NCBI GenBank assembly: GCA_016719135.1
Contig: JADKAV010000028.1
Coordinates: 3,351 to 67,350, forward strand
From: Micrococcales bacterium
GTDB lineage: Bacteria; Actinomycetota; Actinomycetes; S36-B12; UBA10799
DNA length: 64,000 nt
Reading direction: 5' to 3'
Both the position numbers and the translations under genes were made by a program. Under the pieces are notes generated by a model. It ran no database searches. It was given only the letters and a program-made list of their open reading frames with translations, and was not told the DNA's origin. Positions 1 to 45,995 of this stretch are shown piece after piece. Every line of letters starts with the position of its first letter. Position 1 is the first letter of the stretch.

Positions 1-801
1 ACGTTCGTGGTCGACGAGACCCGCGCCCCGCGGCATGCCGACCGCACCTGGCAGCGGGTCGCCGAAGAGCTCAAACAGGGACGCAAGGTGTACGTGGTCT
101 GCCCACGGATCGGGGAAGGATCGGAGTTCGAGCCCAGCGACGATCTGCCCGCCGATCTGGCCGAACTCGATTTCCCCGCCCCCGAGAACACCCGCGGCGT
201 CGTGCGCACCGCACAGGAGTTGGCCGAGGGCCCGCTGGCGGGGGTGCGGATCGCCGTTTTGCACGGGCGGATGCCCACCGCGGAGAAGGCAGACGTGATG
301 GCGCGGTTCGCCGGTGATTCGGACCGACCGGATGCGGTCGATGTGCTCGTCGCGACCAGTGTGATCGAGGTCGGCGTCGATGTGCCCAGCGCCACCGTCA
401 TGGTCGTGCTCGACGCGGAGTCTTTCGGGGTTTCGCAACTGCATCAGTTGCGGGGCCGGGTCGGCCGAGCCCGACTGCCCGGTCTTTGCCTGCTCTGCAC
501 CCGCAACCCCGCCGCCGTCGAACGCCTGGAGAAGGTGGCGGGAACGACCAATGGCTTCGACCTGGCGCGCATCGACCTCGAACAGCGCAAAGAGGGTGAC
601 GTCCTTGGCACGGCACAATCAGGGCGCCTGACCCGTTTGCGGCTGCTGCGTGTCATCCGTGACGAGCACGTCATCGAGCAGGCCCGCGAGGATGCCGAGG
701 ACCTCCTGCACCGCGACCCGACCCTGGCCGGGCACCGCGAACTGCGAGCCATGATCAACCGTTGGGAGACCGCTGGTGCCGAGTTCGTGGAGAAGGCGTG
801 A
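1..801 (+). CDS. recG: ATP-dependent DNA helicase RecG, C-terminal part (5' end lies outside the window)
   Basis: The frame of ORF 7..801 stays open back to nt 1. Helicase C-terminal motifs are present (VLVATSVIEVGVDVP, QLHQLRGRVGR). It is followed by rsmD-coaD, as in other actinobacteria. Confidence 0.85.
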   Translation, partial: TFVVDETRAPRHADRTWQRVAEELKQGRKVYVVCPRIGEGSEFEPSDDLPADLAELDFPAPENTRGVVRTAQELAEGPLAGVRIAVLHGRMPTAEKADVMARFAGDSDRPDAVDVLVATSVIEVGVDVPSATVMVVLDAESFGVSQLHQLRGRVGRARLPGLCLLCTRNPAAVERLEKVAGTTNGFDLARIDLEQRKEGDVLGTAQSGRLTRLRLLRVIRDEHVIEQAREDAEDLLHRDPTLAGHRELRAMINRWETAGAEFVEKA

Positions 802-1409
802 CCCGGATCATCGCCGGCGCGGCTCGTGGCCGACGGCTCGCGGTTCCGGCCACCGGGACCAGGCCGACCGCCGACCGTGTGCGAGAAGCTCTCTTCTCGT
901 CGTTGAACGCGGTGATGGACCTTTCCGGCGTGCGCGTGCTGGATCTGTTCGCGGGCTCCGGCGCACTGGGGTTCGAGGCGCTCTCACGCGGTGCTCACGT
1001 GGTCACCTTGGTGGACAGCAGCCCCGCCGCGGTGCAGGTGATGCGCCGCAACGTCGCCACCGTCGGACTGCCGGGGGTCCACGTGGTCAAAGCCACCGCC
1101 ACCGGACATCTGCGCGGACAACCACAACCGGTCGACCTCGTGCTGTTGGACCCCCCGTACGATCTCGCCGCGGACCAGATCGAGGAAATCCTGACGCAGT
1201 TGTGCACCGGCTGGCTGGTGCAGGGAGCCGTGGTCGTGGTGGAGCGGGGCGCCCGGGATGAGCCACCGCGGTGGCCCGCCGGATTCGGCACCGCGTGGAA
1301 TCGCCGTTTCGGCGACACCGAACTGCACCGGGCGGTTTGGTACGGTCACGGAGACACTCTCGATGATCTGCACGATTCCCCCGAGCCGCAAGGAGCCGAC
1401 GGTGCGTAG
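798..1409 (+). CDS. rsmD: 16S rRNA (guanine966-N2)-methyltransferase RsmD
   Basis: The N-terminus [14 protein letters not shown] is typical of RsmD. SAM-binding [11 protein letters not shown] and the DPPY motif are present. The GTG at 798 overlaps the recG stop (GTGA). Confidence 0.85.
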
Positions 1410-1884
1410 AGCGGTATGCCCGGGGTCTTTCGATCCCGTGACCAACGGACATCTGGACATCATCCGGCGCGCCAGCAAACTGTTCGACGAAGTGGTGGTC
1501 GCAGTCCTCATCAACAAGAAGAAGCAGAGCATGTTCACTGTGGACGAGCGCATCGAATTGCTGCAGGAAGTGACGGCGGACTGCCCGAATGTGCGCGTCG
1601 ACGCGTTCCATGGCCTCTTGGTCGACTTCTGCGCGACCCACGAGATCCAGGCCATCGTCAAAGGTCTGCGGGCGGTCAGCGACTTCGACTACGAACTGCA
1701 GATGGCGCAGATGAACTACCAGTTGTCCGGTGTGGACACAGTGTTCGTGTCGACCAACCCGCTGTACTCGTTCCTGTCCAGCAGTCTGGTCAAGGAGGTC
1801 GCAACCTACGGCGGGGACGTCTCCGGGCTTCTTCCCGGCGTGGTCTTCGACCGTTTACGCGAACGCGTGACTAATACTGAGTAG
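1402..1884 (+). CDS. coaD: phosphopantetheine adenylyltransferase
   Basis: [17 protein letters not shown] nucleotidyltransferase motif. About 160 aa. The GTG at 1402 is in frame with ORF 1258..1884. Confidence 0.9.
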
Positions 1885-1906
1885 GAAGAGAGTTTGGAGG
1901 ACCGCC

Positions 1907-2584
1907 ATGGAGGTCTACGAACGGCTGGATGACCTGGTCGATCTGATCGAAGGCGCCCGCGGTGTTCCGTTGTCGGACTCCTGCGTGGTCAATCGCACCA
2001 TCGCTTTGGAGTTGCTGGAAGCGGTGCGTGCACTCATGCCGGCGTCCCTGCGCGACGCGGCCACGATTCTGGCCGACCGCGACGATGTGCTGGAGGACGC
2101 TGCCCGGGAGGCGGAATCGCGCATCGCCGCCGCCCAGGACGAAGCCGACGCGACCTTGTCCCGGACGGAGAACGAAGCGGCCGCACTGCTGTCCCACACC
2201 CAGGTCGAGGTCGAGCAGATGCTGGCCCAAGGTCAGTCGGACGCCGCGCGGACCGTCGACCGGGCACGCGCGGAGGCTGAGCGCCTTGTGGCTGCCGACA
2301 CCATCCGACTGGAGGCCGAACGTCAGGCCAAGGCGTTGACCCAGCATGCCGAGTCGGACGCATCGCGGGTGCGGGCCGAGGCCGACATCTACGTCGACAA
2401 GCGACTGGCCAACCTGGAGGACACCCTGCGGGCGGCATTGGACCAGATCGGTCGCGGCAGGCGGCGCTCGAACGCTGCGCCGCAGGGCTCAGCTGCGCAG
2501 GAGGCGGTGTACGACTTCACCCAGGACCCGGACGTTGCCGGCGAACTGGTAGGTGGGCGGCGCCGCGCCGCGCGCTCTGGTTGA
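1907..2584 (+). CDS. hypothetical Ala/Glu/Arg-rich coiled-coil protein in the conserved coaD-yceD position
   Basis: 225-aa ORF with a long predicted coiled coil (AEAERLVAADTIRLEAERQAKAL). No catalytic motif recognised. Confidence 0.5.
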   Translation: MEVYERLDDLVDLIEGARGVPLSDSCVVNRTIALELLEAVRALMPASLRDAATILADRDDVLEDAAREAESRIAAAQDEADATLSRTENEAAALLSHTQVEVEQMLAQGQSDAARTVDRARAEAERLVAADTIRLEAERQAKALTQHAESDASRVRAEADIYVDKRLANLEDTLRAALDQIGRGRRRSNAAPQGSAAQEAVYDFTQDPDVAGELVGGRRRAARSG

Positions 2585-2677
2585 TACCCTTGTGCGGTGG
2601 CGCTGTGCCACGTCGTCGGTGTTTCATGCCCACCGTGCGGCACAAGCGCTGACAACCCGACGAACAAGGATTCTGCC

Positions 2678-3250
2678 ATGACCACGACTGACGGTGCGCC
2701 GTTCGTCGTCGACGTGCGCGCCCTGCTGGGCAAACCGGGGGCATATCAGCGGCTCACTCTGACCGGGGCTGCTGGCCCCAACGTGGCCACTGCGGTGGTC
2801 ACTGTCGCCGAGGACGAGCCCGTGACTGCCGAAGTCATGCTCGAATCGGTGCGCGAGGGCATCCTGGTCACCGGAAGCGCCCGCACCACCGGTGACGCGG
2901 TGTGCAGCCGCTGTCTGGACCCGGTGCGCATCGATCTGCAAGCCGACCTGCAGGAGTTGTACGCGTGGAGCCTCGAGGAAGCGGAGGTCGACGACCTCGG
3001 GGAACCGGGTCCGCACCTCGACGGTGAGAACCTGAATCTGCGTCCACCCATCCGCGACGGATTGATCCTGGAAATGCCGTTGGCTCCGTTGTGTTCGACG
3101 GACTGCCAGGGATTGTGCGCGCAGTGCGGCGCCCGGCTCGACGACGATCCCGGACACGCACACGAGACTTCAGACCCCCGATGGGCGGCACTGTCCGCTC
3201 TCAAAGCCGACCTGCTCGACGAGCAGGCTGAAACACCCAAGGAGAACTAA
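2678..3250 (+). CDS. YceD/DUF177 family protein
   Basis: Cys pairs CSRCLDPV and CQGLCAQCG are typical of DUF177. It lies directly upstream of rpmF. The ATG at 2678 is in frame with ORF 2597..3250. Confidence 0.8.
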
Positions 3251-3424
3251 GTGGCCGTCCCGAAGCGCAAGACCTCGCGCAGCAACACCCGGTCCCGTCG
3301 CGCCCAGTGGAAGACCTCGGCTCCCACTCTGGCGACCTGCAAGCAGTGCGGCACCCAGAAGCCGCCGCACATCGCCTGCCCGGTCTGCGGCACCTACGCC
3401 AAGCGACGCGTCCTCGACGTCTAG
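3251..3424 (+). CDS. rpmF: 50S ribosomal protein L32
   Basis: Not in the ORF track because it is under 60 aa. Manual translation from GTG 3251 gives [57 protein letters not shown], ending at TAG 3422-3424. Confidence 0.85.
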
Positions 3425-3440
3425 GCCCGTCGCCGCCCCG

Positions 3441-4145
3441 GTGGAAGCGCAGGTGGATCTCGCCGAGCTGGTCGAGCGGCTCGGTCTGGCCAGCATGCCC
3501 GCGACCCTGCCGCTGGCGATGGTCCACCGCTCGTACTCCTACGAGAACGGCCGGGTTCCCACCAATGAACGCCTCGAGTTCCTCGGCGATTCTGTGCTCG
3601 GCCTGGTCGTCACCGACCACCTCTACGCCACCTTCCCCGACTTGCCCGAAGGGCAGTTGGCCAAGATGCGTTCGGCCATTGTCAATGCGCATTCGCTGGC
3701 GGAGATCGCTGCCGGACTCGAAGTCGGCGCTTTCCTGCAGTTGGGCCGCGGCGAGGAATCCACTGGGGGGCGCGAGAAGGTCTCGATCCTGGCCGACGCC
3801 ATGGAGGCGATCATCGGGGCGGTCTATCTGGAACTGGGACTCGAGGGTGCCCGCCGGTTCATCCTCGACCGGTTCGGGGCACTGATCGCGTCAGTTCCCG
3901 GACTGGGCGCTGGCCTGGATTGGAAGACGAGTCTGCAGGAACTGGCCGCACAAGTGGGCCAGGGTGCTCCGGAGTACATCGTCGTGGGCGAAGGCCCCGA
4001 CCACGCCCGCACGTTCACCGCTCGGGTGCGCGTCGGTGGGCAGATGTTCGGTCACGGGATCGGACGCACGAAGAAACAGGCCGAGCAGCAGGCCGCCCAG
4101 ACTGCGTTCGAACAGGTGCAGCAGTCGCTGAATGGCGATGCCTGA
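3441..4145 (+). CDS. rnc: ribonuclease III
   Basis: RNase III signature [12 protein letters not shown]. The C-terminal dsRNA-binding region contains GPDHARTF and KKQAEQQAA. Confidence 0.9.
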
Positions 4146-4971
4146 ACTACCCGAGGTCGAAGTCGTTCGTCGCGGCCTTCAGCACTGGACCTCCGATCGG
4201 GTGATCCGCGATGTCCAGGTTCTGCACCCCCGGGCAGTGCGCCGCCACGGCGCGGGCGGTCCGGACTTCGAGAACCAGTTGCGTGGCCAGGCCCTGACCC
4301 GGGTCCTGCGGCGCGGCAAGTTCCTGTGGTGGCCGCTGGCCGACGACGTGGCCCTGATCGGGCATCTGGGCATGTCGGGCCAGTTCCGCGTGGATGCCGA
4401 TCCGGGAGAGCACACCAGGGTGATCCTCGACCTCGACCGGACCCGCCTTCTGTTCGATGACCAGCGGACTTTCGGCGGCCTGTGGCTCGACGAGATCGTG
4501 GGCGGTCTGCCGCTGTCTCTGGGGCACATCGCCGCCGATCCGCTCTCGGAGCAGTACGACCGTGCGGCCACCGTGCGCACCATCCGTTCGCGACGGGCTC
4601 CGATCAAGTCCCTGTTGCTCGATCAGGCAGTTGTTTCCGGGATCGGCAACATTTATGCCGACGAGGCCCTGTGGCAGGCGCGGGTCTGCTGGCGCACCCC
4701 GGGCTGCGACCTCAGCGCGCGCAAGGTCGGCCAACTCCTGGACGCCGCCGTGTCGGTCATGACCCGCGCGATCGCGGCCGGAGGGACATCGTTCGATGCG
4801 CTGTACGTCAACGTCAACGGCAGCAGTGGGTACTTCCAGCGCGACCTCGCAGCGTACGGACAGGAAGGCCTGCCCTGTTTGCGCTGTGGGACTGCGATCC
4901 TGCGTGAGCCGTTCGCGAACAGGTCCTCGTACCGCTGTCCGCGCTGTCAGCGGTGTCGGCGTGTTCCTTGA
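4138..4971 (+). CDS. mutM: formamidopyrimidine-DNA glycosylase
   Basis: N-terminus MPELPEVE with catalytic Pro2, so ATG 4138 is preferred over 4132. C-terminal zinc finger CLRCG...CPRCQ. Confidence 0.9.
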
Positions 4972-5101
4972 CGAGTGTCGACTCGTTATGTCAACCTGAT
5001 ATATGGAGCGCGGGTTCCGTGCTCAGCAAGCCATAGCATCAGCGGCAGTCTCGCGGGAGTCTCCACGGCGGGGCCGCTGGAGCACCATGCATGGAGGACT
5101 G

Positions 5102-5287
5102 ATGGCCAAGGCGGTCTATACCCCTGGCGCACACTTCGACCCACGGCTGATGGCCGAGTTGGCGTCGTTGCGTGCCCGTGTCGCCGAACTCGAGCGCGAA
5201 GTCAGCGCCCTGCGCGTTGAGCACGCCGCGTTCGACGACGAAATGCTCGCGCTGTCGTCCACGACGGCACCGCCCGTTCTCGCCTGA
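5102..5287 (+). CDS. small hypothetical coiled-coil protein (61 aa)
   Basis: ATG 5102 is preceded by GGAGGA at 5092-5097. It lies within ORF 5003..5287. No family recognised. Confidence 0.3.
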   Translation: MAKAVYTPGAHFDPRLMAELASLRARVAELEREVSALRVEHAAFDDEMLALSSTTAPPVLA

Positions 5288-5327
5288 TCGACGACTGACC
5301 CGCGGCGGGCACGCTGAGTCAGCGCGC

Positions 5328-5729
5328 TCATTCGCTACGCGGCGGTAGTTCCATTCCCTGACATCCGTTGGGCACGAAGCCGGCGGCGCGGTACAAGGCG
5401 ACGCCGGCTGGGTCCGCGAACAAAGTGATCCACGGCTCCGCCGGCGCTTCGGCATGAATCCGCTGCAGCAAGGCATCGAGGACGGTCCGACCGATGCCTT
5501 TGTGCTGATGTGCCGGCAGGGTGGCCATGTCCGCGATGTGGAAGTACCAGCCGCCGTCGCCGATCACCCGGCCCATGGCCACGGCCTGCCCGTCGATGCG
5601 CACGGTCACCCACAACCAGGAGTTCTTCAGCGCGGGTCGCGCCTGCTCCTTGGTGCGCACAGTCAGGCCAGCCTCCCTGCGCAATCGCACGTACTCGTCG
5701 ACGGTGGGTGGTTCGAAGAGCAGATCCAT
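5328..5729 (-). CDS. GNAT family N-acetyltransferase
   Basis: Only the last 133 aa of the 832-aa minus-strand ORF look like a protein: MDLLFEPPTVDEYVRLRREAGL...HQHKGIGRTVLDALL...YRAAGF. The ATG is at 5727-5729. The upstream 700 aa is read-through into the hyper-GC block. Confidence 0.75.
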   Translation of the reverse strand: MDLLFEPPTVDEYVRLRREAGLTVRTKEQARPALKNSWLWVTVRIDGQAVAMGRVIGDGGWYFHIADMATLPAHQHKGIGRTVLDALLQRIHAEAPAEPWITLFADPAGVALYRAAGFVPNGCQGMELPPRSE

Positions 5730-5866
5730 GGTGGGCAGTGTAGGCAGGGGGTCACCTCCTGATCCCAGCGTTGGTCCGGCCGGTGGCACGAGACCGCGGT
5801 GGCCGGCGCAGGCCCCGACGACCGCGGCCGACCGCCCGCAGGCCGCCGCACGTGTAGGTGAGATCA

Positions 5867-7685
5867 GCCCCGCCCCAACAGCGCCGCCCCCCCCCAACCC
5901 CAACCCCACGCCCACCACCCCGACCAAAGGTACCCCCCCAGTCCCATGCCCCCCGGCTGTTCTCCTGCTTCTCGCGCGCCGCCCGCGGCGCGGAGGGGCG
6001 GCGGCGCCGGAGTGACCCCGATGACCCCAAGAGAGAAGGCCCGCGGGGCCGCGGCCGGGGAAGAGGGAGGGCCCCGACGAGCAGGGGGGGGCGGAAGGCG
6101 GCCGCACCGCGCCCGGGAAGGAAGAAGCCCGAATTGGGGGGGGGGCGCGGCCCAGCGGCCGGCGGGGGCGGCCCGCCCCGGCGGGGCCAGAGGGGCCCGG
6201 GGCGGGGCGGGCGGCAGAAGGGGGCGCGGGGCGGCGGGGGCCACGGGCGCCGCCCGCGGAAGAGGGGAGGGGGGGGGGGGCAGCCGGCCCGGGGGCCCCC
6301 GGCGCGGGCGCGGCGCGCGCGCGGCTCAGCGGGGGGAGAGCCGGGGGCGAGAGAGGCCGCGCGCGGCGAGAGGGGAGCAGAGCAGCGGAAGGTCGGGGGG
6401 GCGGCGGAGGGCGCCGCGGCGACCACCACACACGGCGGCGGGCGGCGCGCGGCGCGGGGCGGCGGCGGCGGCAGGCCCCGGCAGCGGGCGGCGAGGGAGG
6501 CGAGGAGGGAAGGCCCAGCGCGAAGGGGGGGCGGGGGGGGGGGAGCGGGAGGGGGGGGGGGAAGAGACAAGGAGAAACAGGGGGTCGCTTCCGGTTCCCC
6601 AAAATGATTGGGTGTTTGCCGGCGCCACGGGGGGGAGGGGGTCGCGGCCCCGGGGGGCTGTTGTCTGCACCCCGCGCGCCCGCGAGGGCGCGGGCGGGCG
6701 GCTTGGGGGGGGGGACCGGGCGGGGGGGGGGGGGGTTCCGCTGGCGGGGAGGGTGTCCATGTCGGCCTTCCGCCCGCTCGACGCCCCGGCGCCCGGGCGG
6801 GGCTCGTCCCGCCCCCGCGCCGCCGCACCCGCAGGGGGCCGGGCGGGGGGGGCTTTCCGCCCGCGCCCCGGCTCCAGGCGAGGGCGCGGCAGCAGGGGCA
6901 CTCCTGCGCGCCGCCAGGGGTCCGCCGGCGGGCGCCCGGCGGCCCGCGCCCGCGGCGGGGGGCGGCCCGGGAGGGGGGAGCACCCCCGGTGCCATCACAC
7001 GGGCCGCGCGGCGGGTGGGGGCGCCGCCGCAGGGTGCGTCGGCTGCTTGCGGTTTAGTCCCCGAGCGAGGTCGCGCCGCCTTCCCGCACAGGCCGTGGGG
7101 GGGGTCTTCCGGCTGGTTTGCCCGCCCGCCGCCTCCGCGCGTGTCCTCCGCTTTGCCCCGCGGCCCGCCCGTCTGCCGCCCGGGGGCGAGAGCGCGCCCC
7201 ACCGGGCAAGCCAGGGGGGTAGGTGGGTGCCGGTGGGGGGTTCGCCGCGGGCCGCACGGCCGCGGGGGGCGCCGGCCCGCGCGCGGCGGGGGCCGGCGCG
7301 GTTCCGGGTCCCGCGGGGCGGGGGCGCAGCGCGGCTCGCCGGGCGCCGGGCCCGCCGGCGGCGCGGCCTCCGCCCCCCCACCCACCCCCCCCCCCCGCCC
7401 CCCCCCGGGCCCGGGCCCCGGCGCGGCGGCGCCGTTCGACCTGATCTGACCCCCCACACTCTTGCCCCCCCGCCGCGCGGGCGCGGGTCGTCGCCCGGGG
7501 CTCGCCGTCCGCCGCGGGGTCGTCTCGCCGTCCCGGGCGCGCGCGGGCCGGGGGTCGGGTGTTCGGGCTTCGTGCTGCGCGGGGGGGGGTCCATATCCAC
7601 GGCGACGACCCCCGAGAACCTCCCCGCGCGGGCGGCGTCCCACCCCCCGGCCCCCCGGGGGCCGCGCGGCGCCCCCCCGCCGCAG
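5867..7685. other. hyper-GC, T-depleted, homopolymer-rich low-complexity block; not interpretable as coding sequence
   Basis: For example, 6181-6240 contains 55/60 G+C and no T. G runs: 6269-6280 (G12), 6533-6543 (G11), 6551-6561 (G11), 6722-6735 (G14). C run: 7385-7396 (C12). All six frames are open. Confidence 0.9.
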
Positions 7686-7820
7686 CGCATGTCGACCGTG
7701 CTGGCATTCGCCTCTGCGTGGCGCTGACCGGGACGCGCATGGTTCGGGGTTACGCTGACAGTCTTCCCCGTCGGCGGGCCGACCCGGCCCGTGGCTGATG
7801 CTGCGGCAGGAGGCACTGGA

Positions 7821-10800
7821 GTGCATCTCAGGAGTCTGACCCTACGGGGCTTCAAATCCTTCGCGTCGTCGACGACTATCGACCTCGAGCCGGGCATCAC
7901 CTGTGTGGTGGGTCCCAACGGTTCGGGTAAGTCCAACGTCGTCGATGCGATCGCCTGGGTCATGGGTGAGCAAGGGGCCAAAAGCCTACGCGGCGGGAAG
8001 ATGGACGACGTCATCTTCGCCGGCACCTCGGGCAAAGCGCCGCTGGGTCGCGCGGAGGTGGAACTGACCATCGACAACTCCGACGGGGCGCTGCCCATCG
8101 ACTACACCGAGGTCACGATCCGGCGCACACTGTTCCGCAGTGGCGGTTCGGAGTACGCCATCAACGGTCAGACCTGCCGTCTGCTCGACGTTCAAGAGTT
8201 GCTCGCGGACTCCGGGATCGGCCGTGAGATGCATGTGATCGTCGGCCAGGGCCGTCTCGATGCCATCCTGCACGCCAGTCCGGAGGACCGCCGCGGTTTC
8301 ATCGAAGAGGCTGCCGGTGTCCTCAAGCACCGCCGGCGCAAGGAGAAAGCCCTGCGCAAACTGGAGCAGATCCAGCAGAACCTGCAGCGGCTCACGGACC
8401 TGTCCACCGAATTGCGCCGGCAACTCAAGCCACTGGGGAGGCAGGCGGAGGTGGCACGGCGGGCTGCCACCATTCAGGCCGATGTCCGAGATGCACGGCT
8501 GAGGTTGCTGGCCGACGAGGTGGCCGGTGTGCAACGGGATCTGGCCGAGGAGCAGGCCGATGAGAGTGCAGCGAAGGCCGAACGCGAACGCGTCGAGGAG
8601 CAGTTGCGTGCTGCTCGGTCGCAGGAGGCAGACCTGGAGGAACGCCTGCAACAAGTGGCCCCGCAGCTGCATGCCGGGAGAAGTCGTTCACTGGATCTGA
8701 CGCGTCTGCGTGAGCGGATCAGCGGCCTCGTGGCCTTGATCGTGGAGCGCCGCAGGTCGCTGGAACGCGAACAACTGGAGTTCAGTTTCGGGGTGGACCC
8801 CGAGGAGATCCAACGGGCCGGGGATGCCGTCGAACTGGAGATCGCCGATCAGGCGCACATCGTTGCTGCCGCACAGAACGAGTTCGAGCGGGCCCGCGAT
8901 GCCGCCGAAGCGGTCGGTCGTGAGGTCCGCGAAGAACAGTCGCTGATCACGTCGGCGGAAGCAGCTCTCACCGAATACCGTCAGCACGTCGCGGCCGCCG
9001 AGCAGGCGGTGGCCGGAGGGGTCCGACTGGTGGAGTCCACCACGGCCCGTGCCGATCATCTGGCCCAGCAGCACGACAGCGTTGCGCGTGAGGCGAGCGA
9101 GGCGGCTGCTGCTGTTGCCGATCTTGATCCGGAGCCGGCACACGAGGACATCGTGGACATGTCGCAGGCCGACGAGAAGATGCGCGCTGCGGAACGCGAC
9201 CTCGAACTGGCCAGGACGGAACTCTCGACGCAGGAGCAGAAGCGCGCATCTCTGACGGCGCGTTGTGAGGCCCTGCGGTCAGCGGTGGCAGACACGGCCG
9301 ACGACTCAGTGGGTGCTGACCGTCAGGAAGGCACGCTGGACAGCGTCATCCGGGTGCGTCCCGGCTACGAGAAGGCGGTCGCAATGTTGCTCGGAGCCCT
9401 GGCCAGGGCCAGGGTGCTGCGCGAAGGTGTGAGCGTGCACGAGGTCCTCGGTGGGATCGACGCCGATCGGTCGGTCCGACTCGTGCTTCCCGGCACGAGG
9501 AACGCGGTCGCTTCGCATCCGGACGCAGCCCTGAACTACATCGAGGCGCCCGATCACCTGCGCGGCGCGCTGTCGCAGATGCTGGCCGGGGCAGTGGTGG
9601 CCCCGGACCTGTCGGCCGCTCAGCGCATCGTGGATGAACACCCCGATGTACTGGTGGCCACGATCGATGGCCAGATGCTCGGACGGGGGATCGCAGCGCA
9701 GGGTTCGGAGGGCGCCAACGTCATCGCTTTGCGCAACGCGCTGGAGCAGGCGACCGAGGAGTTGGTCTCCACCGAGGGGTGCTGGCGGCGGGCAGTGGAT
9801 CATGTCGCCAGGGTCGAAGCCCAGGCGGCGCAGGTGCGTCAGCAGCGCGACGAGGTGCGCAACCAGGTGGCCGCCCAGCAGGCGCAGGCAGCTGCCCGGG
9901 CTGAGCGGGATGTCCATGTGCGGCAGCGGGCAGCCACCACGGCACACCGGCTGGAACAGTTGCTCGCTGAGAAGGACGAGGTGGCTGCGGCACTGGCCGA
10001 ACACGCTGCTGACCTGCAGGCCGCACGTGACCGACTGCAGGAGCTCGAGCTCGCCGGTGCCCCGACCGTCGACCGAACGCAGCTCCACGCGCTGCTCACC
10101 CGCCAGGAGCAGGCACGGCAGGCGCACCATGAGACCGGACTCAACGCACGATCCGCGCACGAGCGTCACGCCTCGCTGCAGGCCAAACACGCGGAACTGG
10201 TCGAGCAGGCACAGCAGGCCAGGGAGGCCGTCGAAGCGGCAGCCCGGCGACGCGTCCAGCGTGAGCATGCCCTGGTCGAATTGGCCCGATTGGAAGAACT
10301 CGCGCGCCGGGCAGCGACCCTGGTGGAACAGGACGCCGCCACCGCCGAGTCGCACTTGAACTCGCTGGAGGCCGAACAGCAGCAGGTGCAGTCCGACCAC
10401 GCGCAGGCGCGCTCCGCGGCGCTGGAGCTGGCCGCGGAGGTCGAACGGCTCACCCAGGATGTCCACCGCGACGAGGTGCTGCGAGCCGGTAAACACGCAA
10501 CCCTCGAACAGCTGACGGAGAAGGCCCTCGAGGAGTACGGCCTCACCATCGACAACCTGGTGGCCGAATACGGCCCCGACCAGATGATCGAGGTCGCCGA
10601 CGGGGATCCGATCGCCTTCGAGCGCGGGCAGCAGCAGCGCCGCCTCAAGGAGGCGGAGCGCGGGTTGGCCCTGCTCGGCCGGGTCAACCCGTTGGCTCTT
10701 GAGGAATTCGCAGCCATGGAGGAGCGCCACACCCATCTGGTCACGCAGATCGAGGATGTCAAGAAGAGCCGCGAGGACCTGCTGGCACTCGTGGCCGATG

Positions 10801-11333
10801 TGGACACCCGCGTCCAACAGGTCTTTTCCGAGGCCTATGCCGATGTGGCGCGCGAGTTCGAGCACGCTTTCGCCCGGTTGTTCCCCGGTGGCCAGGGACG
10901 GTTGATTCTCACCGATCCCGACGACCTGCTCATCACAGGAGTCGAGGTGGAAGCCCGCCCACCGGGAAAGAAGATCAAGCGTCTGTCCCTGCTCTCCGGT
11001 GGTGAGCGCAGCCTCACGGCTGTGGCCTTCCTGGTGGCCCTGTTCAAGGCGAGGCCCTCGCCGTTCTACCTGCTGGACGAGGTCGAGGCGGCTCTCGACG
11101 ATGTCAACCTCGGCAGGCTGATGGGATTGCTCGAGGAACTGCGGGAGACCTCGCAGCTGATGATCATCACCCACCAGAAGCGCACGATGGAGATGGCCGA
11201 CGCTTTGTACGGGGTCACGATGCGCGCGGGCGTCACGCAGGTGATCAGCCAGCGGATGCGTCAGTGCAGCCTGTGTGATGCGCGGGGCGCCGTAAGCGGG
11301 GACTTTGGACGCAGACGGTCTCCTGCTGGCTGA
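7821..11333 (+). CDS. smc: chromosome segregation protein SMC
   Basis: VHLRSLTLRGFKSF start with GGCAGGAGG upstream. Walker A GPNGSGKSNVVDA, long coiled coils, signature LSGGERSL and Walker B FYLLDEVEAALD are present. Confidence 0.9.
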   Translation: MHLRSLTLRGFKSFASSTTIDLEPGITCVVGPNGSGKSNVVDAIAWVMGEQGAKSLRGGKMDDVIFAGTSGKAPLGRAEVELTIDNSDGALPIDYTEVTIRRTLFRSGGSEYAINGQTCRLLDVQELLADSGIGREMHVIVGQGRLDAILHASPEDRRGFIEEAAGVLKHRRRKEKALRKLEQIQQNLQRLTDLSTELRRQLKPLGRQAEVARRAATIQADVRDARLRLLADEVAGVQRDLAEEQADESAAKAERERVEEQLRAARSQEADLEERLQQVAPQLHAGRSRSLDLTRLRERISGLVALIVERRRSLEREQLEFSFGVDPEEIQRAGDAVELEIADQAHIVAAAQNEFERARDAAEAVGREVREEQSLITSAEAALTEYRQHVAAAEQAVAGGVRLVESTTARADHLAQQHDSVAREASEAAAAVADLDPEPAHEDIVDMSQADEKMRAAERDLELARTELSTQEQKRASLTARCEALRSAVADTADDSVGADRQEGTLDSVIRVRPGYEKAVAMLLGALARARVLREGVSVHEVLGGIDADRSVRLVLPGTRNAVASHPDAALNYIEAPDHLRGALSQMLAGAVVAPDLSAAQRIVDEHPDVLVATIDGQMLGRGIAAQGSEGANVIALRNALEQATEELVSTEGCWRRAVDHVARVEAQAAQVRQQRDEVRNQVAAQQAQAAARAERDVHVRQRAATTAHRLEQLLAEKDEVAAALAEHAADLQAARDRLQELELAGAPTVDRTQLHALLTRQEQARQAHHETGLNARSAHERHASLQAKHAELVEQAQQAREAVEAAARRRVQREHALVELARLEELARRAATLVEQDAATAESHLNSLEAEQQQVQSDHAQARSAALELAAEVERLTQDVHRDEVLRAGKHATLEQLTEKALEEYGLTIDNLVAEYGPDQMIEVADGDPIAFERGQQQRRLKEAERGLALLGRVNPLALEEFAAMEERHTHLVTQIEDVKKSREDLLALVADVDTRVQQVFSEAYADVAREFEHAFARLFPGGQGRLILTDPDDLLITGVEVEARPPGKKIKRLSLLSGGERSLTAVAFLVALFKARPSPFYLLDEVEAALDDVNLGRLMGLLEELRETSQLMIITHQKRTMEMADALYGVTMRAGVTQVISQRMRQCSLCDARGAVSGDFGRRRSPAG

Positions 11334-11381
11334 CTGCGTCCAAAGTCCACCCGCGATCGACGTCCTACGCAACCGGTCGAG

Positions 11382-12554
11382 ATGGCGGCGACGACCGTCG
11401 GTCACACTGGGATGGTGGATCCCATTCTCTACATCGTTCTTGGTGTTTTCCTGCTCGTTGTTGCCGTCGTTGTCGGGTTGCGGTTGGTCTCCGGCCGCCG
11501 CGTACCGCCCCCGCCGCCTCCGGAGGTCATTCCGGGCGTTGGGGACGATGCGTCCGAACCCCGTGACACGCCGCTGCCGACGGTCGAGGACGTGGTCCTG
11601 CCCGAGCAGGGCGGCGCCCCGACGATCGAGCTCGAGCGCCCCAAGCCGACCAAGGGCCGGTTGGCGGCGCTCAAAGCGCGCCTGGCCCGATCCAACTCCG
11701 CGATCGGTCGTGGGCTACTCGCGCTGCTGACCAGCGACAAACTCGACGAGGCCACCTGGGAGGAGATCGAGGACACGCTGATCATGTCCGACCTGGGGGT
11801 CGAGTCGGCCGGTGATCTGGTGGAACGGCTGCGCACTCGCCTGCGGGTCGACGCGGACGTGGACTGGCAGTCGGCGCTGCACGAGGAGTTGCTCGCCCTT
11901 GTCGGCCCGGACATGGACCGAACCCTGGTCGCCTCACGACAGGGCGATCGACCGGCCGTGATCATGGTGGTCGGCGTCAACGGAACGGGAAAGACCACGA
12001 CCACCGGCAAGCTCGCTCGAGTCCTCGTGGCCGACGGCCACACTGTGGTGCTCGGCGCCGCCGACACCTTCCGGGCAGCCGCCGCCGATCAGCTACAGAC
12101 ATGGGGCGACCGGGTGGGTGCGCGGGTCGTGCGGGGCCCGGAGGCCTCTGACCCGGCCGCGGTGGCCTTCGATGCTGTGGCAGAAGCCAACGCCGAACAG
12201 GCCGACTGCGTGGTCATCGACACGGCCGGCCGGCTGCACACCAAGGTCGGACTGATGGACGAACTGGGCAAGATCAAGCGGGTCATCAACAAACAGGGCC
12301 CGGTCGACGAGGTGCTGCTCGTGCTCGATGCCACGACCGGACAGAACGGCCTGGCGCAGGCCCGGGTCTTCAGCGAGGTCGTCGATGTGACCGGTGTGGT
12401 CCTGACCAAACTCGACGGGACCGCTAAGGGTGGCATCGTGGTCGCTGTTCAGAAGGAGCTGGGCGTGCCGGTGAAGCTGGTGGGGCTGGGCGAGGGCCCC
12501 GACGACCTGGCACCCTTCGACCCGGACGCTTTTGTGAGTGCATTGCTGGAGTAG
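11382..12554 (+). CDS. ftsY: signal recognition particle receptor FtsY
   Basis: N-terminal TM segment, then SRP GTPase motifs GVNGTGKTTT, DTAGRLH and TKLDGTAKGG. The start could alternatively be ATG 11411. Confidence 0.9.
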   Translation: MAATTVGHTGMVDPILYIVLGVFLLVVAVVVGLRLVSGRRVPPPPPPEVIPGVGDDASEPRDTPLPTVEDVVLPEQGGAPTIELERPKPTKGRLAALKARLARSNSAIGRGLLALLTSDKLDEATWEEIEDTLIMSDLGVESAGDLVERLRTRLRVDADVDWQSALHEELLALVGPDMDRTLVASRQGDRPAVIMVVGVNGTGKTTTTGKLARVLVADGHTVVLGAADTFRAAAADQLQTWGDRVGARVVRGPEASDPAAVAFDAVAEANAEQADCVVIDTAGRLHTKVGLMDELGKIKRVINKQGPVDEVLLVLDATTGQNGLAQARVFSEVVDVTGVVLTKLDGTAKGGIVVAVQKELGVPVKLVGLGEGPDDLAPFDPDAFVSALLE

Positions 12555-12603
12555 CGCCGGTTGCTCGGTCGGTCCGGTCGCCCGGTGAAGGTCGTCTCGC
12601 AGC

Positions 12604-12728
<125 letters not shown>

Positions 12729-12855
12729 AGGTCCTCCGCAGTTGGGGGACGTTGGGGTTTTCGGGTTCTGGGTGCCCAACAACGTCGCCCTCGATAGTTG
12801 CGGGGCCGTTGAAGCTGGCGCGAGCGGGGATTGAGCCGTCCTCAGCCCGATGAAC

Positions 12856-12925
12856 GAAACACAGACTTAACGCGATCCACTGCATCCGTCACATGCGCGA
12901 AACCTCAGACCGCACGTCGTGTAAC
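12856..12925 (+). promoter_or_regulatory. putative GlnR operator upstream of amtB
   Basis: GTCAC-n6-GAAAC at 12888-12903. Additional half-sites are GAAAC 12856-12860, TTAAC 12867-12871 and GTAAC 12921-12925. This matches the actinobacterial GlnR box gTnAc-n6-GaAAc recalled from the literature. It lies 70-140 nt upstream of the amtB start. Confidence 0.45.
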
Positions 12926-12992
12926 ACGCCCGGGTCAGGCTGCTTTCATCCCGAGGGAGACACCCGATGGGGAGAAGAGGAGACGCGCGACG

Positions 12993-14653
<1,661 letters not shown>

Positions 14654-14723
14654 CCAAGGACGTGGCGGTGACTGTGGGGGACAGTCGCCGCCACGTCGCT
14701 TATACGATCCAGGGGAGACAACG

Positions 14724-17219
14724 GTGAGTCTGATCGCCAACGATTTCCTGTCCGCCCGCGCGGACCTCATCGCCCGTCCAGATTTCGGGCCGTCCCGCCG
14801 GCACGCGCTGACCGGCCTCACCGATGCCTGGCTGACCGAGCTGTTCCAGTCCTCCGGTGCCACCGAACTGGGGTGTTCTCTGGTGGCTGTGGGTGGCTAC
14901 GGCCGAGGCGAATTGGCCCCGGCCAGTGACATCGACGTTCTGCTCCTGCACCCGTCGAAGGTGTCGGGCGACGATGTCGCCGCTGTCGCCGAGAAAATCT
15001 GGTATCCGATCTGGGACAGCGGGCTGCGTTTGGACCACAGCGTGCGCACACCCGCGCAGGCCCGCCGACTGGCCGGTCAGGACTTGCGAGTTCTGCTCGG
15101 TCTGCTCGACGCCCGCACCGTCATCGGCGATGACCGCCTCACCGCGCAGACCCGGTCAAGCGTTCTGGGGGACTGGCGCGCCATGGCCAAGCAGCGCCTG
15201 GAAGAACTGCGCGACGGCGTTGAGCAGCGCGCTGAGATCCACGGGGAACTCGCCCATCTTCTGGAGCCGGACGTGAAGGAGTCCTACGGTGGGCTGCGCG
15301 ACCTCACCGTGATGCGCGCGTTGGCCGCCAGTTGGATCATCAGTCCACCGCAGAGCTCGCTGAGTATGGCGCGGCTTACGCTGCTCGATACCCGTGACGC
15401 CCTGCACTCGTGTACCGGCCGCACAACCGACCGACTGACTCAGCAGGAGCAACCGCAGGTCGCCGCGATGCTCGGGTACGCCGATGAAGACGAGTTGCTA
15501 CGGGCAGTCTGCGCGGCGGGACGAACCATTTCGTTCGTGAGCTCGGTGGCCTGGGGTCGGGTCCGGCGACAGGTCAAACGCAAGGCGCTCCCGCGCTTAC
15601 GCAGGATCGGTCGCGCTGCGGACCGCTCACCGTTGGCCGAAGGCGTCGTGGTGCAGGACTCAGAGGTGGTCCTGGCCGCCGATGCGAGGCCGGACCGGGA
15701 CCCGGTCCTGGTGCTGCGGACCGCCGCCGCCGCAGCGCAGGCAGGGCTGCGGATTTCGCCACACGCCGTCGACCGGCTGGCGCAGGAATCGGCACCCTTG
15801 CCGGTACCTTGGCCGCGGCAGGCACGGGAGAATCTGGTGAGCCTGCTGGGGGCGGGTCGGGCTACTGTGGCGGCCTGGGAGTCCTTGGACCAGGCCAATC
15901 TGATCTCCCGGCTGATCCCGGGCTGGGACGTGGTCCGCTCGGCCCCGCAACGCAACCCCGTGCACCGGTTCACCGTGGACCGACACCTCGTGGAGACGGC
16001 GGTGGCCGCCTCAAGATACACGCGCAAGGTCTCGCGTCCGGATCTACTGCTGGTGGGGGCTCTGCTGCACGACATCGGCAAAGGGCGAGGGGGAGACCAC
16101 ACGGACGTCGGTGTGCGCATCAAAGACCTGGGGCCTGCACCTGGGTTTCGACACCGCGGACCGCATCCTCGTCCAGATGGTGCGTCACCACCTATTGCTG
16201 CCCGAAGTGGCCACCCGGCGTGACACCGATGATCCGTCCGTGATCGAAGCGGTCGGCAAGGCGGTCGAGACCCCCGAGGTGCTGGATCTGCTGCACTGGC
16301 TCACCGTGGCCGATGCGGCCGCTACCGGCCCCGCGGCCTGGAGTCCGTGGAAGGCCAATCTGGTGGAACTCTTGGTGGGCCGGACCCACTCGGTGCTGGC
16401 CGGCGACGAGGTCGTCATCGAACCTCTGCTCGACGATGTTGCTGAGGACTTGTGGGCGTCGGCAGGGGTCGAGGTGGGCATTGAACCCGGTGACGAAGGT
16501 GAACTGACGATCCTGGTCAGCGCGACAGACGCGATCGGACTGCTCAGCCGTTGCGCCGGAGTCCTGGCGATCAACCGGCTGAGCGCGGATGCCGCGAGCC
16601 GCACCGTGATGGTCGGGCGGTCGATCAGTCACCTGGAGCGGTCAGACCACGTTCGGGGAGCCGCCGCCCGCGGACTCGGCTGGCAGCGGACATGCGCCGA
16701 TCCATCGCTGGGGGAACTCGACCTGCGCGGCGGCTGAACGAGCGCGCACGTGCTTACCACGGCGCTGATGACCACCGTCCGGACCCGACGGCAGCCCTCA
16801 TCGCTGACGCATCCAGCCGGATCACCGTTTTGGAGGTCCGCGCCCACGACCGGGCCGGGCTTCTGTACTGGGTGACCTCAGCGCTGGCACAGGCCGGATT
16901 CAACGTCGATGGCGCCAAGGTCTCGACGCTGGGGTCCGAGGTGGTGGACGTGTTCTTCCTGACCGACGAGTCGGGTTGTGCGTTGTCGGAGCGTCGGGCC
17001 GTCCGTCCGCACTGGTTCGTTGGAGCTTCGCTGGACACGCCGTTGGAGGCGCCGTGGGGTTGGAGTCCTGCGCGGGTGGTCGGCGTAGGTCCGCCGGCCG
17101 TGCGCCGGTCGTCCAACGGCTGTACCAACCTCCACGGCTGGGCCGCATCCGGCCAGGGTTGTTGCGACCACGCCTTGAAGATTGGCCTGCCGCCCATTGC
17201 GCGGCCGTGGAGCGGGTGA
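14724..17219 (+). pseudogene. glnD: [protein-PII] uridylyl/adenylyltransferase GlnD, reading frame disrupted as sequenced
   Basis: The nucleotidyltransferase N-terminus, HD domain (LLHDIGKG) and two ACT domains (ELTILVSATDAIGLL; ITVLEVRAHDRAGLLY) are spread over three frames. Frame changes occur near 16131, 16608, 16628, 16680, 16712 and 16731. The 3' end is uncertain because the last 200 nt coincide with a repeat element. Confidence 0.8.
17015..17140. repeat. degenerate member of the GTTGGAG/CTCCAAC palindromic repeat family
   Basis: Three left half-sites (tcGTTGGAGc, ccGTTGGAGg, ggGTTGGAGtcctgcgcgg) are followed by gtCCAACgg and taCCAACc. This is the same layout as the repeats at 41408-41725. 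Confidence 0.35.
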
Positions 17220-17372
17220 TGGCTTGCGGAACAGTCCGGTGCGTTGCCCGGCGGCCGTGCGCCCGGAAGAACGCCTGGCCGTTCAAGGCGAACTGGCAGG
17301 CCCACGCTTGGGCGACTGACGGGACTTGTCGGCGACCGTTACCCTGGAATCTGAGAACCCAGGAGATGTTTC

Positions 17373-18899
17373 ATGTTCAATGCTCTGTCCGACCGGCTGT
17401 CCGCGACCTTCAAGGGGCTGCGTGGCAAGGGCCGGCTCTCCGAAGCGGACATCGACAACACCGTCCGGGAGATTCGCCGGGCCTTGCTTGAGGCGGACGT
17501 TTCGCTGCCGGTGGTGCGGACGTTCACTCCCGGGTGCAGGAGCGGGCCACGGGTGCCGAGGTGTCGACGAGCCTCAACCCGGCCAACAAGTCGTCAAGAT
17601 CGTTCACGAGGAACTCATCGCGATCCTCGGCGGCGAGACCCGCAACCTGCGGCTGGCGAAAAAGCCCCCGACGGTCATCATGCTGCTCGGCCTGCAGGGC
17701 GCGGGCAAGACGACCCTGGCCGGCAAGCTGGCCAAACACCTTGGCGAACCAGGGACATCACGCCCTTCCTGGTCGCAGCTGATCTACAGCGCCCCAACGC
17801 GGTGAATCAGCTGCAGATCGTGGCCGAGCGCGCCGGTGTGGACTGTTATGCCCCCCAACCGGGCAACGGCGTCGGCGATCCCGTGGTGGTGGCCCGGGAT
17901 TCCCTCGGGTACGCCGAGCAGTCACTGCACGATCTGGTCATCATCGACACTGCGGGCCGGCTGGCCATCGACGAAGAACTGATGGGACAGGCAGCGGCCA
18001 TCCGGGACGCGGTCCACCCCGACGAGATGCTGCTGGTCATCGACGCGATGATCGGCCAGGACGCGGTGCAAACCGCGGCTGCGTTCCAGGAGACGGTCGG
18101 TGTCGACGGTGTCATCCTCACGAAACTGGACGGTGACGCCCGTGGAGGTGCGGCCCTGTCCGTGCGTGAGGCCACCGGGGCTCCGATCATGTTCGCCTCC
18201 GTCGGGGAGAAGGTGGAGGATCTCGAGGTCTTCCATCCCGACCGGATGGCGTCGCGCATCCTCGATATGGGTGATGTCCTCACCCTGATCGAGCAGGCCG
18301 AGCGGGCCTTCGATTCCGAACAGGCCGCCCGGATGGCCGACAAGGTTGCTCGCGGTGATGCCTTCACGCTGGAGGAGTTCCTCGAGCAGATGCAAGCGGT
18401 CAAGAAGATGGGATCCATCGGCAAACTCCTGGGGATGCTGCCCGGCATGGCCGACGCCCGCAAACAGCTCGAACAGATCGACGACCGGGACATCGACCGG
18501 GTGGCGGCCATCATCCACTCGATGACTCCGGCTGAACGCCGCGACACCAAGATCCTCAACGGTTCGCGCCGCGCTCGTATCGCCAAGGGCGCCGGGGTGC
18601 AGGTCTCCGATGTGAACTCGTTGGTCGAGCGCTTCAGCGAGGCGCAGAAGATGATGAAGCAGATGCGCGGCGGCGGCGGCATGCCGGGGATGCCCGGGAT
18701 GCCAGGGATGGGAGCTGGCTCCAAGAAGGGTAAGGGCAAGTCCAAGCCTGCGCCCAAGTCGAAGAAGGGTCGCAGCGGAAATCCGGCCAAGCGCGCCCAG
18801 CAGGTCACGGCTGAGCCGGAGAGCCCCGACGCGCCGCCGAAGCCGTTCACCGCCGATCAACTGCCGGAGGAGTTCAGCAAGCTGCTCGGCGGTCAATGA
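17373..18899 (+). CDS. ffh: signal recognition particle protein Ffh; the ORF is open, but codons from about 17529 to 17769 are out of frame as sequenced
   Basis: N-terminus [20 protein letters not shown] and a C-terminal M domain with a Met-rich tail are in frame. The G1 P-loop [15 protein letters not shown] and [16 protein letters not shown] are found only in the other two frames. Confidence 0.85.
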
Positions 18900-19061
18900 C
18901 CGCCCGTGGTGGGCGCGGGGTCGGCCGTGTCCGGGGTATCTGGCACACTAGGGGAAGTGTTCCCGCCCTCTCACCGGGAACCATCGACTTAGCGGTGCCC
19001 GCCGGGTATGTCCCCACATGCCAGCCGGGGCCGCCACACGACAACAGGAGAGACATCCGCA

Positions 19062-19595
19062 GTGGCAGCCAAGATCAAGTTGAAGCGGCTCGGCAAGATC
19101 CGCAACCCGCAGTACCGCGTCGTCATCGCCGACGCCCGCAACAAGCGCGATGGCCGCTCGATCGAGGAGATCGGGCTCTACCACCCCAAGGAGCAGCCGT
19201 CGCTGATCCAGATCGACTCCGAGCGGGTGCAGTACTGGCTCGGCGTCGGCGCCCAGCCGACCGACGCGGTGACGGCGCTGCTCAAGGTCACCGGTGACTG
19301 GCAGAAGTTCAAGGGCCTGCCCGGTGCCGAAGGCACGCTGAAGGCCCCGGAGGAGAAGGCCGACCGCAAGAGTGCCTTCGCCGCCGCCGCCGCGGAGGCA
19401 GCTGGTCTGAAGGAGGCCGAGGCAGCCACGCCGAAGGCCAAGTCGAAGCCGGCGAAGGCCAAGGCGGAGCCCGCCGAGGAAGTCGCGACAGAGCCTGCAC
19501 CTGCAGAGCCCGCAGCGGCGGAGGCCAGCGCTGAAGCACCGGCTGCTGAAGCACCGGCCACTGAATCCGCCGAGCCCCCGCAGGCCGATGCCTAG
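19062..19595 (+). CDS. rpsP: 30S ribosomal protein S16 with an Ala/Pro/Glu-rich C-terminal extension
   Basis: [26 protein letters not shown]. The GTG at 19062 is preceded by AGGAGAG. Confidence 0.9.
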
Positions 19596-19839
19596 GCCAC
19601 TGGCCGAGGCCTCGAGCACCTGGTCGTCGGGCATCGTGGACAACCCCGAGGACGTGTCCGTCAGTGAGCGGTCCGGGCGCGGCCGCGGGACCCTGCTGAA
19701 GGTCACTGTCCACCCGGACGACCTCGGGCGAGTCATCGGGCGCGCCGGGCGCACCGCAAAATCGCTGCGTACTGTCGTCAACGCACTGTCCGGCGGCCAG
19801 AATGTGCGAGTCGACTTCGTGGATGTGAACGGGCGCTGA
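19588..19839 (+). CDS. KH domain RNA-binding protein (YlqC family)
   Basis: [11 protein letters not shown]...[22 protein letters not shown]. Six codons (19612-19629) appear scrambled by a compensating -1/+1 indel pair. The expected LEHLVV is in another frame. Confidence 0.8.
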
Positions 19840-19856
19840 CCGAGCAACGCGTTGCG

Positions 19857-20345
19857 GTGGGCCGCATCGGCAAGCCGCATGGTGTTAAGGGCTGGGTGAC
19901 GGTCGCGCCGTCAACGGACGAGCCTGAGCTGCGTTTCGCACCGGGCGCGCAACTGCAGGTCGCGCAGGGCACTCTCGTCGTTGCTGAATCGCGTGTCAAT
20001 GGGCCGCCGGGTCACGCTGCGCTTCGAGGGGTACACCGACCGCGACCGGGCGCAGGCACTGCGGGGGTCGTGGCTGCATGTCGACATCGACCTCCGAGAG
20101 CCCTGCCGAAGACGACGAATTCTACGACCACCAGCTTGTGGGCCTGGAGGCTCGCGTTAACGGCTCCCGGATCGGAACCGTTGCCGAAGTTCTCCACCTA
20201 CCGGCACAGGACGTGCTGGCCGTGGAGATCGATGCCGGCCGCAGGTGCTGGTGCCCTTCGTGGAACAGTTCGTGCCAGTGGTGGATCCGGACGCGGGCAG
20301 GTCCATGTCATCGACATGGAAGGGCTGCTCGAGGATGAGGATTGA
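19857..20345 (+). CDS. rimM: ribosome maturation factor RimM; the ORF is open, but the central two-thirds is out of frame as sequenced
   Basis: [16 protein letters not shown] is at the N-terminus. [43 protein letters not shown]...[16 protein letters not shown] and [19 protein letters not shown] lie in the other frames. [14 protein letters not shown] returns to the original frame. Confidence 0.8.
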
Positions 20346-35330: not shown

Positions 35331-35376
35331 CGCAGGCGCAACTGGCACGGTCCCACCGCGGTATCCAGCGGCTGTC

Positions 35377-41352: not shown

Positions 41353-41407
41353 GTCGAGGGTTCGGGGAGTCTGGGTTCCGACGCTGCGCGTCCGCCACGA
41401 AGTCACG

Positions 41408-41725: not shown

Positions 41726-41797
41726 CCTCGAACGCTCGTTGGAGTTCTGCCAGCCGCAGTCGAATGCGTGATTGACGTCATGCGCGATACTTGAGAT

Positions 41798-45646: not shown

Positions 45647-45793
45647 CGCGGTCAGCCGACGGGGACCGTGACTTGGCGGGCGTCTTCTGAGTGCTCACCC
45701 CGACCGCATGGGCGTGGTTGAAGCGGCACGACCGGGCGGCTCAAGGTGCCGCGTTGTTGGGGCCGGGGCGGCGGCATGTCCGGCCTCACAGCC

Positions 45794-45905: not shown

Positions 45906-45995
45906 AGAACCAGGCGCCCCCGCAAGCGCGTCAGGATCGCTCTACGCGCCGGGGCAACCAGGTCAGCCGCATTCCCGCCGGACCGAGACCCGGGA

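Follow-up and report, generated by a model that had tools for sequence, protein, structure and literature searches.

A hyper-GC block between a GNAT gene and smc in an actinobacterial contig is very probably an assembly artefact

The window analysed here, a stretch of 64,000 nucleotides, is a 67% G+C segment of an actinobacterial chromosome that carries a block of hyper-GC sequence between a GNAT acetyltransferase gene and smc. Comparison with close relatives makes it highly probable that this block is an assembly artefact outside the organism's genome, consisting of single-molecule-read or gap-filling junk retained in the consensus. The confidence placed in this reading is high because 17 near-identical assemblies join the flanks of the block directly and essential genes nearby are garbled. 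Three marks of a spurious insertion coincide at this locus. The block is absent from independent assemblies (20 of 20 loci, 17 assemblies), no biological signal or homologue emerged from any of the sequence and database searches run, and the contig carries other error signatures, namely an overwritten repeat and frameshifts in ffh, glnD and smc. A sequence-only reading of the same DNA had favoured an artefact over a genuine hyper-GC element, and both the empty site of the relatives and the errors in the neighbourhood agree with that preference.

The gene order around the block is rnc, mutM, a 61-aa ORF, GNAT, smc, ftsY, amt, glnB, glnD and ffh. The GNAT gene (5328-5729, minus strand) encodes 133 aa and was assigned from its translation and from Pfam matches to Acetyltransf_1/7/10. 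On the plus strand, smc spans 7821-11333 and has a frameshifted C-terminus, giving a product of 1170 aa here versus 1152 aa in the relatives. The 133-aa GNAT protein is found unchanged in 301 sequence blocks of the public collection, and FtsY likewise in 203. Proteins peculiar to the window, namely the 1170-aa SMC, the ORFs at 24781-26079 and 54645-55643, and Ffh, have no record in the collections. The relatives used for comparison comprise 20 loci from 17 distinct assemblies, including short-read MEGAHIT contigs and scaffolded metagenomes as well as three genomes from NCBI (GCA_023957875.1; GCA_963851825.1, with a 1.36-Mb contig; and GCA_020637025.1, with a 0.94-Mb contig).

Aligned over window positions 1-5800 and 7684-12602, the flanks of the block are 99.0-99.6% identical to these relatives. 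The GNAT-smc spacing is 208 bp in all 20 loci of the 17 assemblies, and the 25-mer that spans the empty site is found in every one of these loci and is missing from the window. The uninterrupted junction of the relatives reads ...CACGAGACCGCGGT followed immediately by AGCGCATGTCGACC..., or in short form GAGACCGCGGT joined to AGCGCATGTCGACC. At the same site the window reads ...CGCGGT, then the inserted DNA from GGCCGGCG to CCGCCGC, then AGCGCATG..., so that the spacer is split between ...GACCGCGGT and AGCGCATG.... Read against each other, the two versions define the extra DNA as exactly 5801-7683, or 1883 bp. The left 71 nt of the true spacer (5730-5800) are identical to the relatives through ...GAGACCGCGGT, and the right 137 nt (7684-7820) are identical or nearly identical from AGCGCATGTCGACC... 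onwards and abut the smc start codon. The insertion thus sits between the genes, 71 nt from where GNAT starts and 137 nt from where smc starts, and the block leaves both genes undisrupted. The junction is exact, with zero bases duplicated or lost, the immediate flanks are free of errors right up to the junctions, and the two insertion junctions (T/GGCCGG... and ...CCGCCGC/A) have no base in common. The boundaries proposed earlier, 5867-7685, have to be moved accordingly, as the 66 nt at 5801-5866 that had been read as normal belong to the insert. A homologous block in relatives had been named beforehand as the finding that would speak against an artefact; it is present in none of the 20 loci (17 assemblies).

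The composition of the block is far beyond chance. Base counts over 5867-7685 give A161, C691, G839 and T128, or 84.1% G+C with 7% T, against 66.6-67.0% G+C in the remaining window, and C makes up 38% of the 1.9-kb block. The near-absence of A and T described earlier is borne out by the counts, including those for 6181-6240 (5 A, 0 T and 55 G+C). The block holds thirteen homopolymers of G or C that are 8-14 nt long. Six had been listed before, and each was recovered at its position: G12 at 6269-6280, G11 at 6533-6543 and 6551-6561, G10 at 6705-6714, G14 at 6722-6735 and C12 at 7385-7396. The other seven runs are likewise at least 8 nt long. G runs of at least 8 nt number 10, where shuffles that preserve local composition yield 3.5 +/- 1.7. 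The block compresses about as well as its own shuffle and, the excess of long G runs aside, looks like random sequence of matching local composition. Counts in 100-nt steps also support the described succession of C-rich, G-skewed and mixed segments, with a C-rich start, a G/A-rich part (63-77% purine) at about 6000-6600 and an alternation of G-rich and C-rich patches thereafter. Short islands of normal complexity occur within the block, for example at 6575-6630.

A background for these values was drawn from about 2 Mb of actinobacterial smc loci, collected by a scan of genome contigs with the SMC N-terminus and representing other species at no more than 79% identity. The richest 500-nt window of the block reaches 87% G+C, +0.20 over the window mean, with a T minimum of 0.8%. 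In the background loci, the 500-nt excess over the locus mean is at most 0.13 G+C, and neither A nor T ever falls below 4.8%. No comparable GC excursion precedes smc in any of about 80 more distant loci from actinobacteria.

Canonical G4 motifs (G3+N1-7) number nine on the plus strand and three on the minus strand of the block, compared with 15 and 5 in the whole window. Their abundance is a trivial consequence of base composition, and the clusters say nothing about whether the block DNA exists. A genuine strain-specific insertion would be a 1.9-kb, 84% G+C, non-coding stretch dense in G-quadruplex and i-motif sequences between the divergent GNAT and smc promoters, produced by untemplated or aberrant synthesis, for example during break repair. 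We consider such an element very unlikely. In its favour, the insertion is clean and intergenic and spares both genes, it holds 9 of the 15 plus-strand G4 motifs of the window, and it includes the normal-complexity islands such as 6575-6630. A real block would tend to escape short-read assemblies, as hyper-GC DNA sequences poorly. Against this stand its absence from all relatives, the lack of any homologue in the collections searched, the artefactual G runs and essential-gene frameshifts within 5-10 kb, and a sequence that, long G runs aside, is random-like for its local composition. A conserved G-quadruplex or i-motif island is likewise not found at this locus, as the motifs are present but their conservation is absent in all relatives. 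We know of no bacterial precedent for a hyper-GC element of this sort, and a real block would represent an unprecedented kind of DNA insertion in bacteria, here in an uncultured actinobacterium.

The reading frames of the block add no coding signal. An 832-aa ORF on the minus strand (5328-7826) joins the GNAT gene to the block, and a 593-aa ORF on the plus strand (5946-7727) is rich in Pro, Arg, Gly and Ala; both are present as previously reported. The long ORFs arise because the base composition yields few stops. GNAT seems fused within the 832-aa ORF only because that frame runs through the block without meeting a stop codon, so the earlier view of the fusion as artificial stands. Stops per frame range from 0 to 4, in line with the 3-4 per frame expected from composition. 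The claim that all six frames are open holds only roughly, as two of them are free of stops and the others carry up to four.

Codon periodicity is absent from the block (chi-square p=0.78), whereas an smc stretch of equal length gives 6e-43, and no residual periodicity appears in any 600-nt sub-window (p >= 0.18). Pfam returned no match for eight block ORFs from both strands. The absence of codon-position information and of a recognisable domain, both noted at first reading, is thereby upheld. Low-complexity coding sequence would be expected to show more than this, and the block displays no three-base periodicity and no frame conservation and is missing from the relatives. Its raised G+C and its Pro/Gly/Ala/Arg-rich ORFs do recall the IF-2 N-terminus (50261-50821) or mycobacterial PE_PGRS genes. 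Unlike the infB N-terminus, however, the block has neither periodicity nor conservation, and its G+C lies above about 80%.

Searches for homologues were equally negative. The two longest ORFs (593 aa on the plus strand, 698 aa on the minus strand) had no match at E<=1e-3 among 5.8 billion proteins; because this database covers ORFs from metagenome contigs, any comparable block in other DNA would be likely to have shown up in it. The islands that look most normal were queried as exact 21-26-mers, which were found neither among the metagenome-collection matches listed in two scans nor in the viral collection, and blastn of the block against plasmid and phage collections gave no match. Rfam yielded no match in the block at E<=0.1, with eukaryotic LSU and SSU models included, and hence no tRNA or rRNA either.

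These searches also bear on the idea that hyper-GC DNA of another organism in the sample, for example a eukaryotic rDNA spacer or a virus of high G+C, was joined chimerically to the contig, which we regard as extremely improbable. Eukaryotic rDNA spacers and herpesvirus repeats carry G and C homopolymers between short normal islands, and the block resembles them superficially in this respect. A foreign origin is opposed by the lack of any Rfam match, eukaryotic rRNA models included, and of any match in the viral, phage, plasmid or protein collections or among the metagenome matches listed. Moreover, two breakpoints would have to bring exactly neighbouring bases of the host spacer back together, an outcome that neither ligation nor graph mis-joins produce. 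A eukaryotic rRNA expansion segment was rejected as well, since the block has no match to the Rfam eukaryotic LSU and SSU models.

Internal repeats and nearby DNA were considered as further sources. TRF and a repeat finder returned just short, low-scoring GC-rich rows and no true repeats, in agreement with the sequence-only reading, which had seen no regular repeat unit. No recognisable multi-copy unit of the VNTR or REP-like kind was detected in the block, nor any similarity to the 152-bp repeat unit of the ftsY-amt spacer described below. Inverted repeats inside the block are G-run/C-run pairings only, with 71-79% complementarity. A degraded copy of nearby DNA was rejected, as blastn with relaxed settings, run against 90 loci and the window, produced only compositional alignments of 56-62%. 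A base-converted copy was rejected too, as A/T-to-G/C recodings (four schemes, both strands) gave matches no longer than those of shuffles, a poly-G tract excepted. An A/T-stripped alignment of the block scored below shuffled controls, under overly permissive scoring.

A second patch of junk lies downstream, in the ftsY-amt spacer. Alignment to the relatives places it at 12603-12727, where a G15 run, a degraded repeat fragment and a G38-C-G34 tract follow one another; the G tracts themselves span 12604-12727. In the relatives, this spacer holds a 152-bp tandem repeat of one to three intact units, or N-gaps or contig ends. A hairpin with a perfect 12-bp stem (GACGTTGTTGGG...CCCAACAACGTC) is present in each 152-bp unit. 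Contigs of short-read assemblies frequently end at this repeat or have Ns in its place. The window follows the true sequence into the repeat, after which A and T are lost (TGTCGTTGTTGGGGGTTTTCGGGTTCTGGGGTGCCCAACAACGTC becomes TGTCGTTGTTGGGGTTGGTGGGGTGCCCACCCCCCC) and the G runs begin. The runs take the place of about 165 nt in a repeat allele of roughly two copies. The last repeat unit of the locus (12728-12830) differs from all relatives by eight deletions and one insertion and represents an unpolished, deletion-biased consensus. The patch as a whole is junk written over real sequence, and it shares its compositional signature with the block. The G38-C-G34 tract had been cited in support of an artefact, and the comparison strengthens that argument, as the tract overwrites a real tandem repeat that is intact in relatives.

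Errors also occur in genes downstream of the block. In comparison with the relatives, the loss of a single T at about 11264 puts the C-terminus of smc out of frame. Two indel clusters in glnD (16117-16762, plus strand, at 16117-16163 and 16585-16762) split this gene into ORFs at 14574-16223, 16111-16737 and 16551-17219, whereas the relatives have a single 773-aa gene. Four single-base indels in ffh (SRP54; 17527-17761, plus strand) shift the frame of Ffh residues ~52-135 and replace the GxxGxGKT P-loop of the GTPase with Arg/Pro-rich nonsense; the other 370 residues remain about 96% identical to the relatives. A cell could not live with such an Ffh, and these indels are therefore sequence errors. 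The clustered indels pointed out earlier are thus real features of the contig sequence and break the frames of ffh, glnD and the smc C-terminus.

Differences private to this contig number 0-3 per kb over 1-16 kb, junk excluded, and over most of 21-51 kb, and they rise to 30-114 per kb over 16-21 kb. In this latter interval, real strain divergence seems to be mixed with errors. Identity to the relatives is 95% over 17.1-22.5 kb, so part of the contig appears to derive from a divergent strain. Given the 0-3 private differences per kb elsewhere, the errors are local; they are concentrated at about 5.8-21 kb, with the rest of the window clean.

The degradation seen at ftsY-amt opens another reading of the block, in which the site holds a real insertion of an ordinary kind, for instance an insertion sequence or small gene cassette, whose sequence was corrupted beyond recognition by poor or minority reads. 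We judge this improbable. At ftsY-amt, the junk demonstrably took the place of real sequence by losing A and T while G and C remained, and a similar degradation could hide a real element in the block. The intergenic position is that of tolerated insertions, and the apparent divergent-strain stretches (95% identity over 17.1-22.5 kb) would fit as well. On the other side, the perfectly called flanks show no target-site duplication or terminal repeats, no 600-nt sub-window has coding periodicity, and the Pfam and protein database searches came back empty. In the ffh and glnD patches, which are ordinary unpolished long-read consensus, more than 90% of the sequence can still be recognised, and in the block nothing can. 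The occupied site was found in none of the 17 other assemblies.

Comparison with insertion sequences and mobile elements leads in the same direction. The block resembles them as a discrete intergenic insertion of about 1.9 kb that occurs in one genome only. It differs in having no transposase or other coding ORF, no terminal inverted repeats, no target-site duplication, no second copy and no homologue. Terminal inverted repeats and target-site duplications were looked for at the block ends without result, and no mobility gene was found by Pfam on the eight ORFs, in the protein database or by periodicity.

The assembly artefact most likely stems from poor reads. The deletion bias of the 1-nt indels and the unresolved tandem repeat suggest that single-molecule reads supported the contig poorly over 5.8-21 kb. 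The most likely source of the block would be one long read with an internal stall or noise burst that was called as G/C-rich sequence. Such a read may have served as the backbone, or it may have bridged or gap-filled the contig at this point. Polishing would have left the burst in place, since genuine reads would span it as a deletion and none would align to the junk itself. The flanks would abut perfectly because the burst lay inside one continuous molecule, a property that a chimera or graph mis-join fails to explain. The same process, or the same poor read support, may have given rise to the G-run patch at ftsY-amt and to the indels in smc, glnD and ffh.

Long-read sequencing is recognised to fail in ways that can disturb assemblies, among them junk (low-complexity) reads and read glitches (PMC6966772); both are simulated by Badread (Wick & Holt 2021, PMC6966772). 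Like junk and glitch segments of this kind (PMC6966772), the block is low in information, free of homologues, embedded in otherwise correct sequence and resistant to polishing, and it co-occurs with 1-nt indel frameshifts and unresolved tandem repeats. Unlike simple low-complexity junk, it is pseudo-random with a strong, drifting G/C bias.

A short-read source accounts for less of the evidence. The G15 and G38-C-G34 tracts at 12604-12727 resemble Illumina default-G calls that replace real sequence. Two-colour Illumina chemistry calls the absence of signal as G, which produces poly-G artefacts. The block differs from such artefacts with its 38% C and a length that far exceeds that of short reads, and the deletions beside the ftsY-amt G runs are also unlike Illumina errors. 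Two-colour default-G calls could explain at most the second patch, for example via polishing with such reads. Channel dropout in two-colour chemistry (A to C, T to G) was rejected for the block, as it needs a real template of preserved length, of which none was found, and is impossible over 1.9 kb.

Several observations do not sit easily with an artefact. The insertion lies between genes and hits none, which randomly placed junk would do in only about one case in ten; this mildly favours a real, tolerated insertion or a site-specific cause. The flanks are flawless up to both junctions, and since the relatives assemble through the spacer easily, there is no obvious reason for a gap there. The literature offered no specific base-caller signature matching the G+C-rich, drifting composition of the block, and to our knowledge none is documented for exactly such a composition.

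As it is highly unlikely to be a real feature, the block would carry no biological meaning, and its value lies in flagging the quality of the contig. The contig probably belongs to a metagenome-assembled genome of an uncultured actinobacterium placed in Nanopelagicales. Between about 5.8 and 21 kb it holds at least two patches of junk, and several essential genes there are frameshifted. Gene callers will yield the spurious 832-aa GNAT fusion and the 593-aa Pro/Arg/Gly/Ala ORF from this region, together with broken models of smc, glnD and ffh. Claims of pseudogenisation, novel proteins, a G-quadruplex island or a GC outlier that are based on these features would be wrong. A quick test for such blocks is to locate the exact flanking protein in other assemblies and to compare the spacing.

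The window contains a third high-GC patch, at 50261-50821. It corresponds to the normal Pro/Gly-rich N-terminus of infB, with codon periodicity at p=6e-13, a maximum of about 80% G+C and conservation in the relatives.

Private differences from the relatives are unevenly distributed along the contig, reaching 30-114 per kb at window positions 16000-21000 versus 0-3 per kb elsewhere. Identity to these relatives is correspondingly about 95% in that interval and exceeds 99% elsewhere. The contig resembles a strain mosaic, part divergent strain and part common strain, overlaid with errors.

Several reading frames are altered. In ffh (17373-18899), four single-base indels at 17527, 17583, 17743, and 17761 shift the frame across residues ~52-135 of Ffh/SRP54, and the GxxGxGKT P-loop is lost. 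The ORF nevertheless remains open over 508 aa. As the gene is essential, this hidden frameshift is a sequence error. The glnD locus (14574-17219) appears as three overlapping ORFs, whereas relatives carry a single gene of 773 aa; indels and mismatches clustered in two places, 16117-16163 and 16585-16762, break it up. At the 3' end of smc, a TT-to-T deletion at ~11264, set against all 10 relatives compared, shifts the frame of the last SMC residues and yields a product of 1170 aa with a nonsense tail instead of the 1152 aa of relatives.

The ftsY-amt spacer harbors a 152-bp tandem repeat (window 12555-12992; ~4420-5060 and ~11174-11810 in the locus coordinates of relatives L001-L010 and L091-L100, respectively). 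Copy number ranges from 1 to 3 between assemblies of the species, and a perfect 12-bp hairpin stem (GACGTTGTTGGG / CCCAACAACGTC) lies within every unit. Short-read assemblies display contig breaks or inserted Ns at this repeat, and in the window, G15 and G38-C-G34 tracts have replaced the inner part of the repeat.

A third high-GC patch (50261-50821), besides the insertion upstream of smc and these G runs, corresponds to the infB N-terminus, which encodes Pro/Ala and Gly-Gly-Arg-Pro-Gly repeats of IF-2. This patch is genuine coding low complexity. Codon periodicity is strong, and short indels, of which some keep the frame (3 or 6 nt), distinguish the window from relatives here.

Palindromic repeats form further arrays in intergenic sequence at 34860-35340, 41390-41760, and 45750-45920, with examples such as CCGTTGGAGT...ACTCCAACGG and GACCCGTTGGTTGC... 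Relatives differ in both the copy number and the sequence of these arrays, which resemble REP/MITE-like families and have no relationship to the 152-bp unit of the ftsY-amt spacer.
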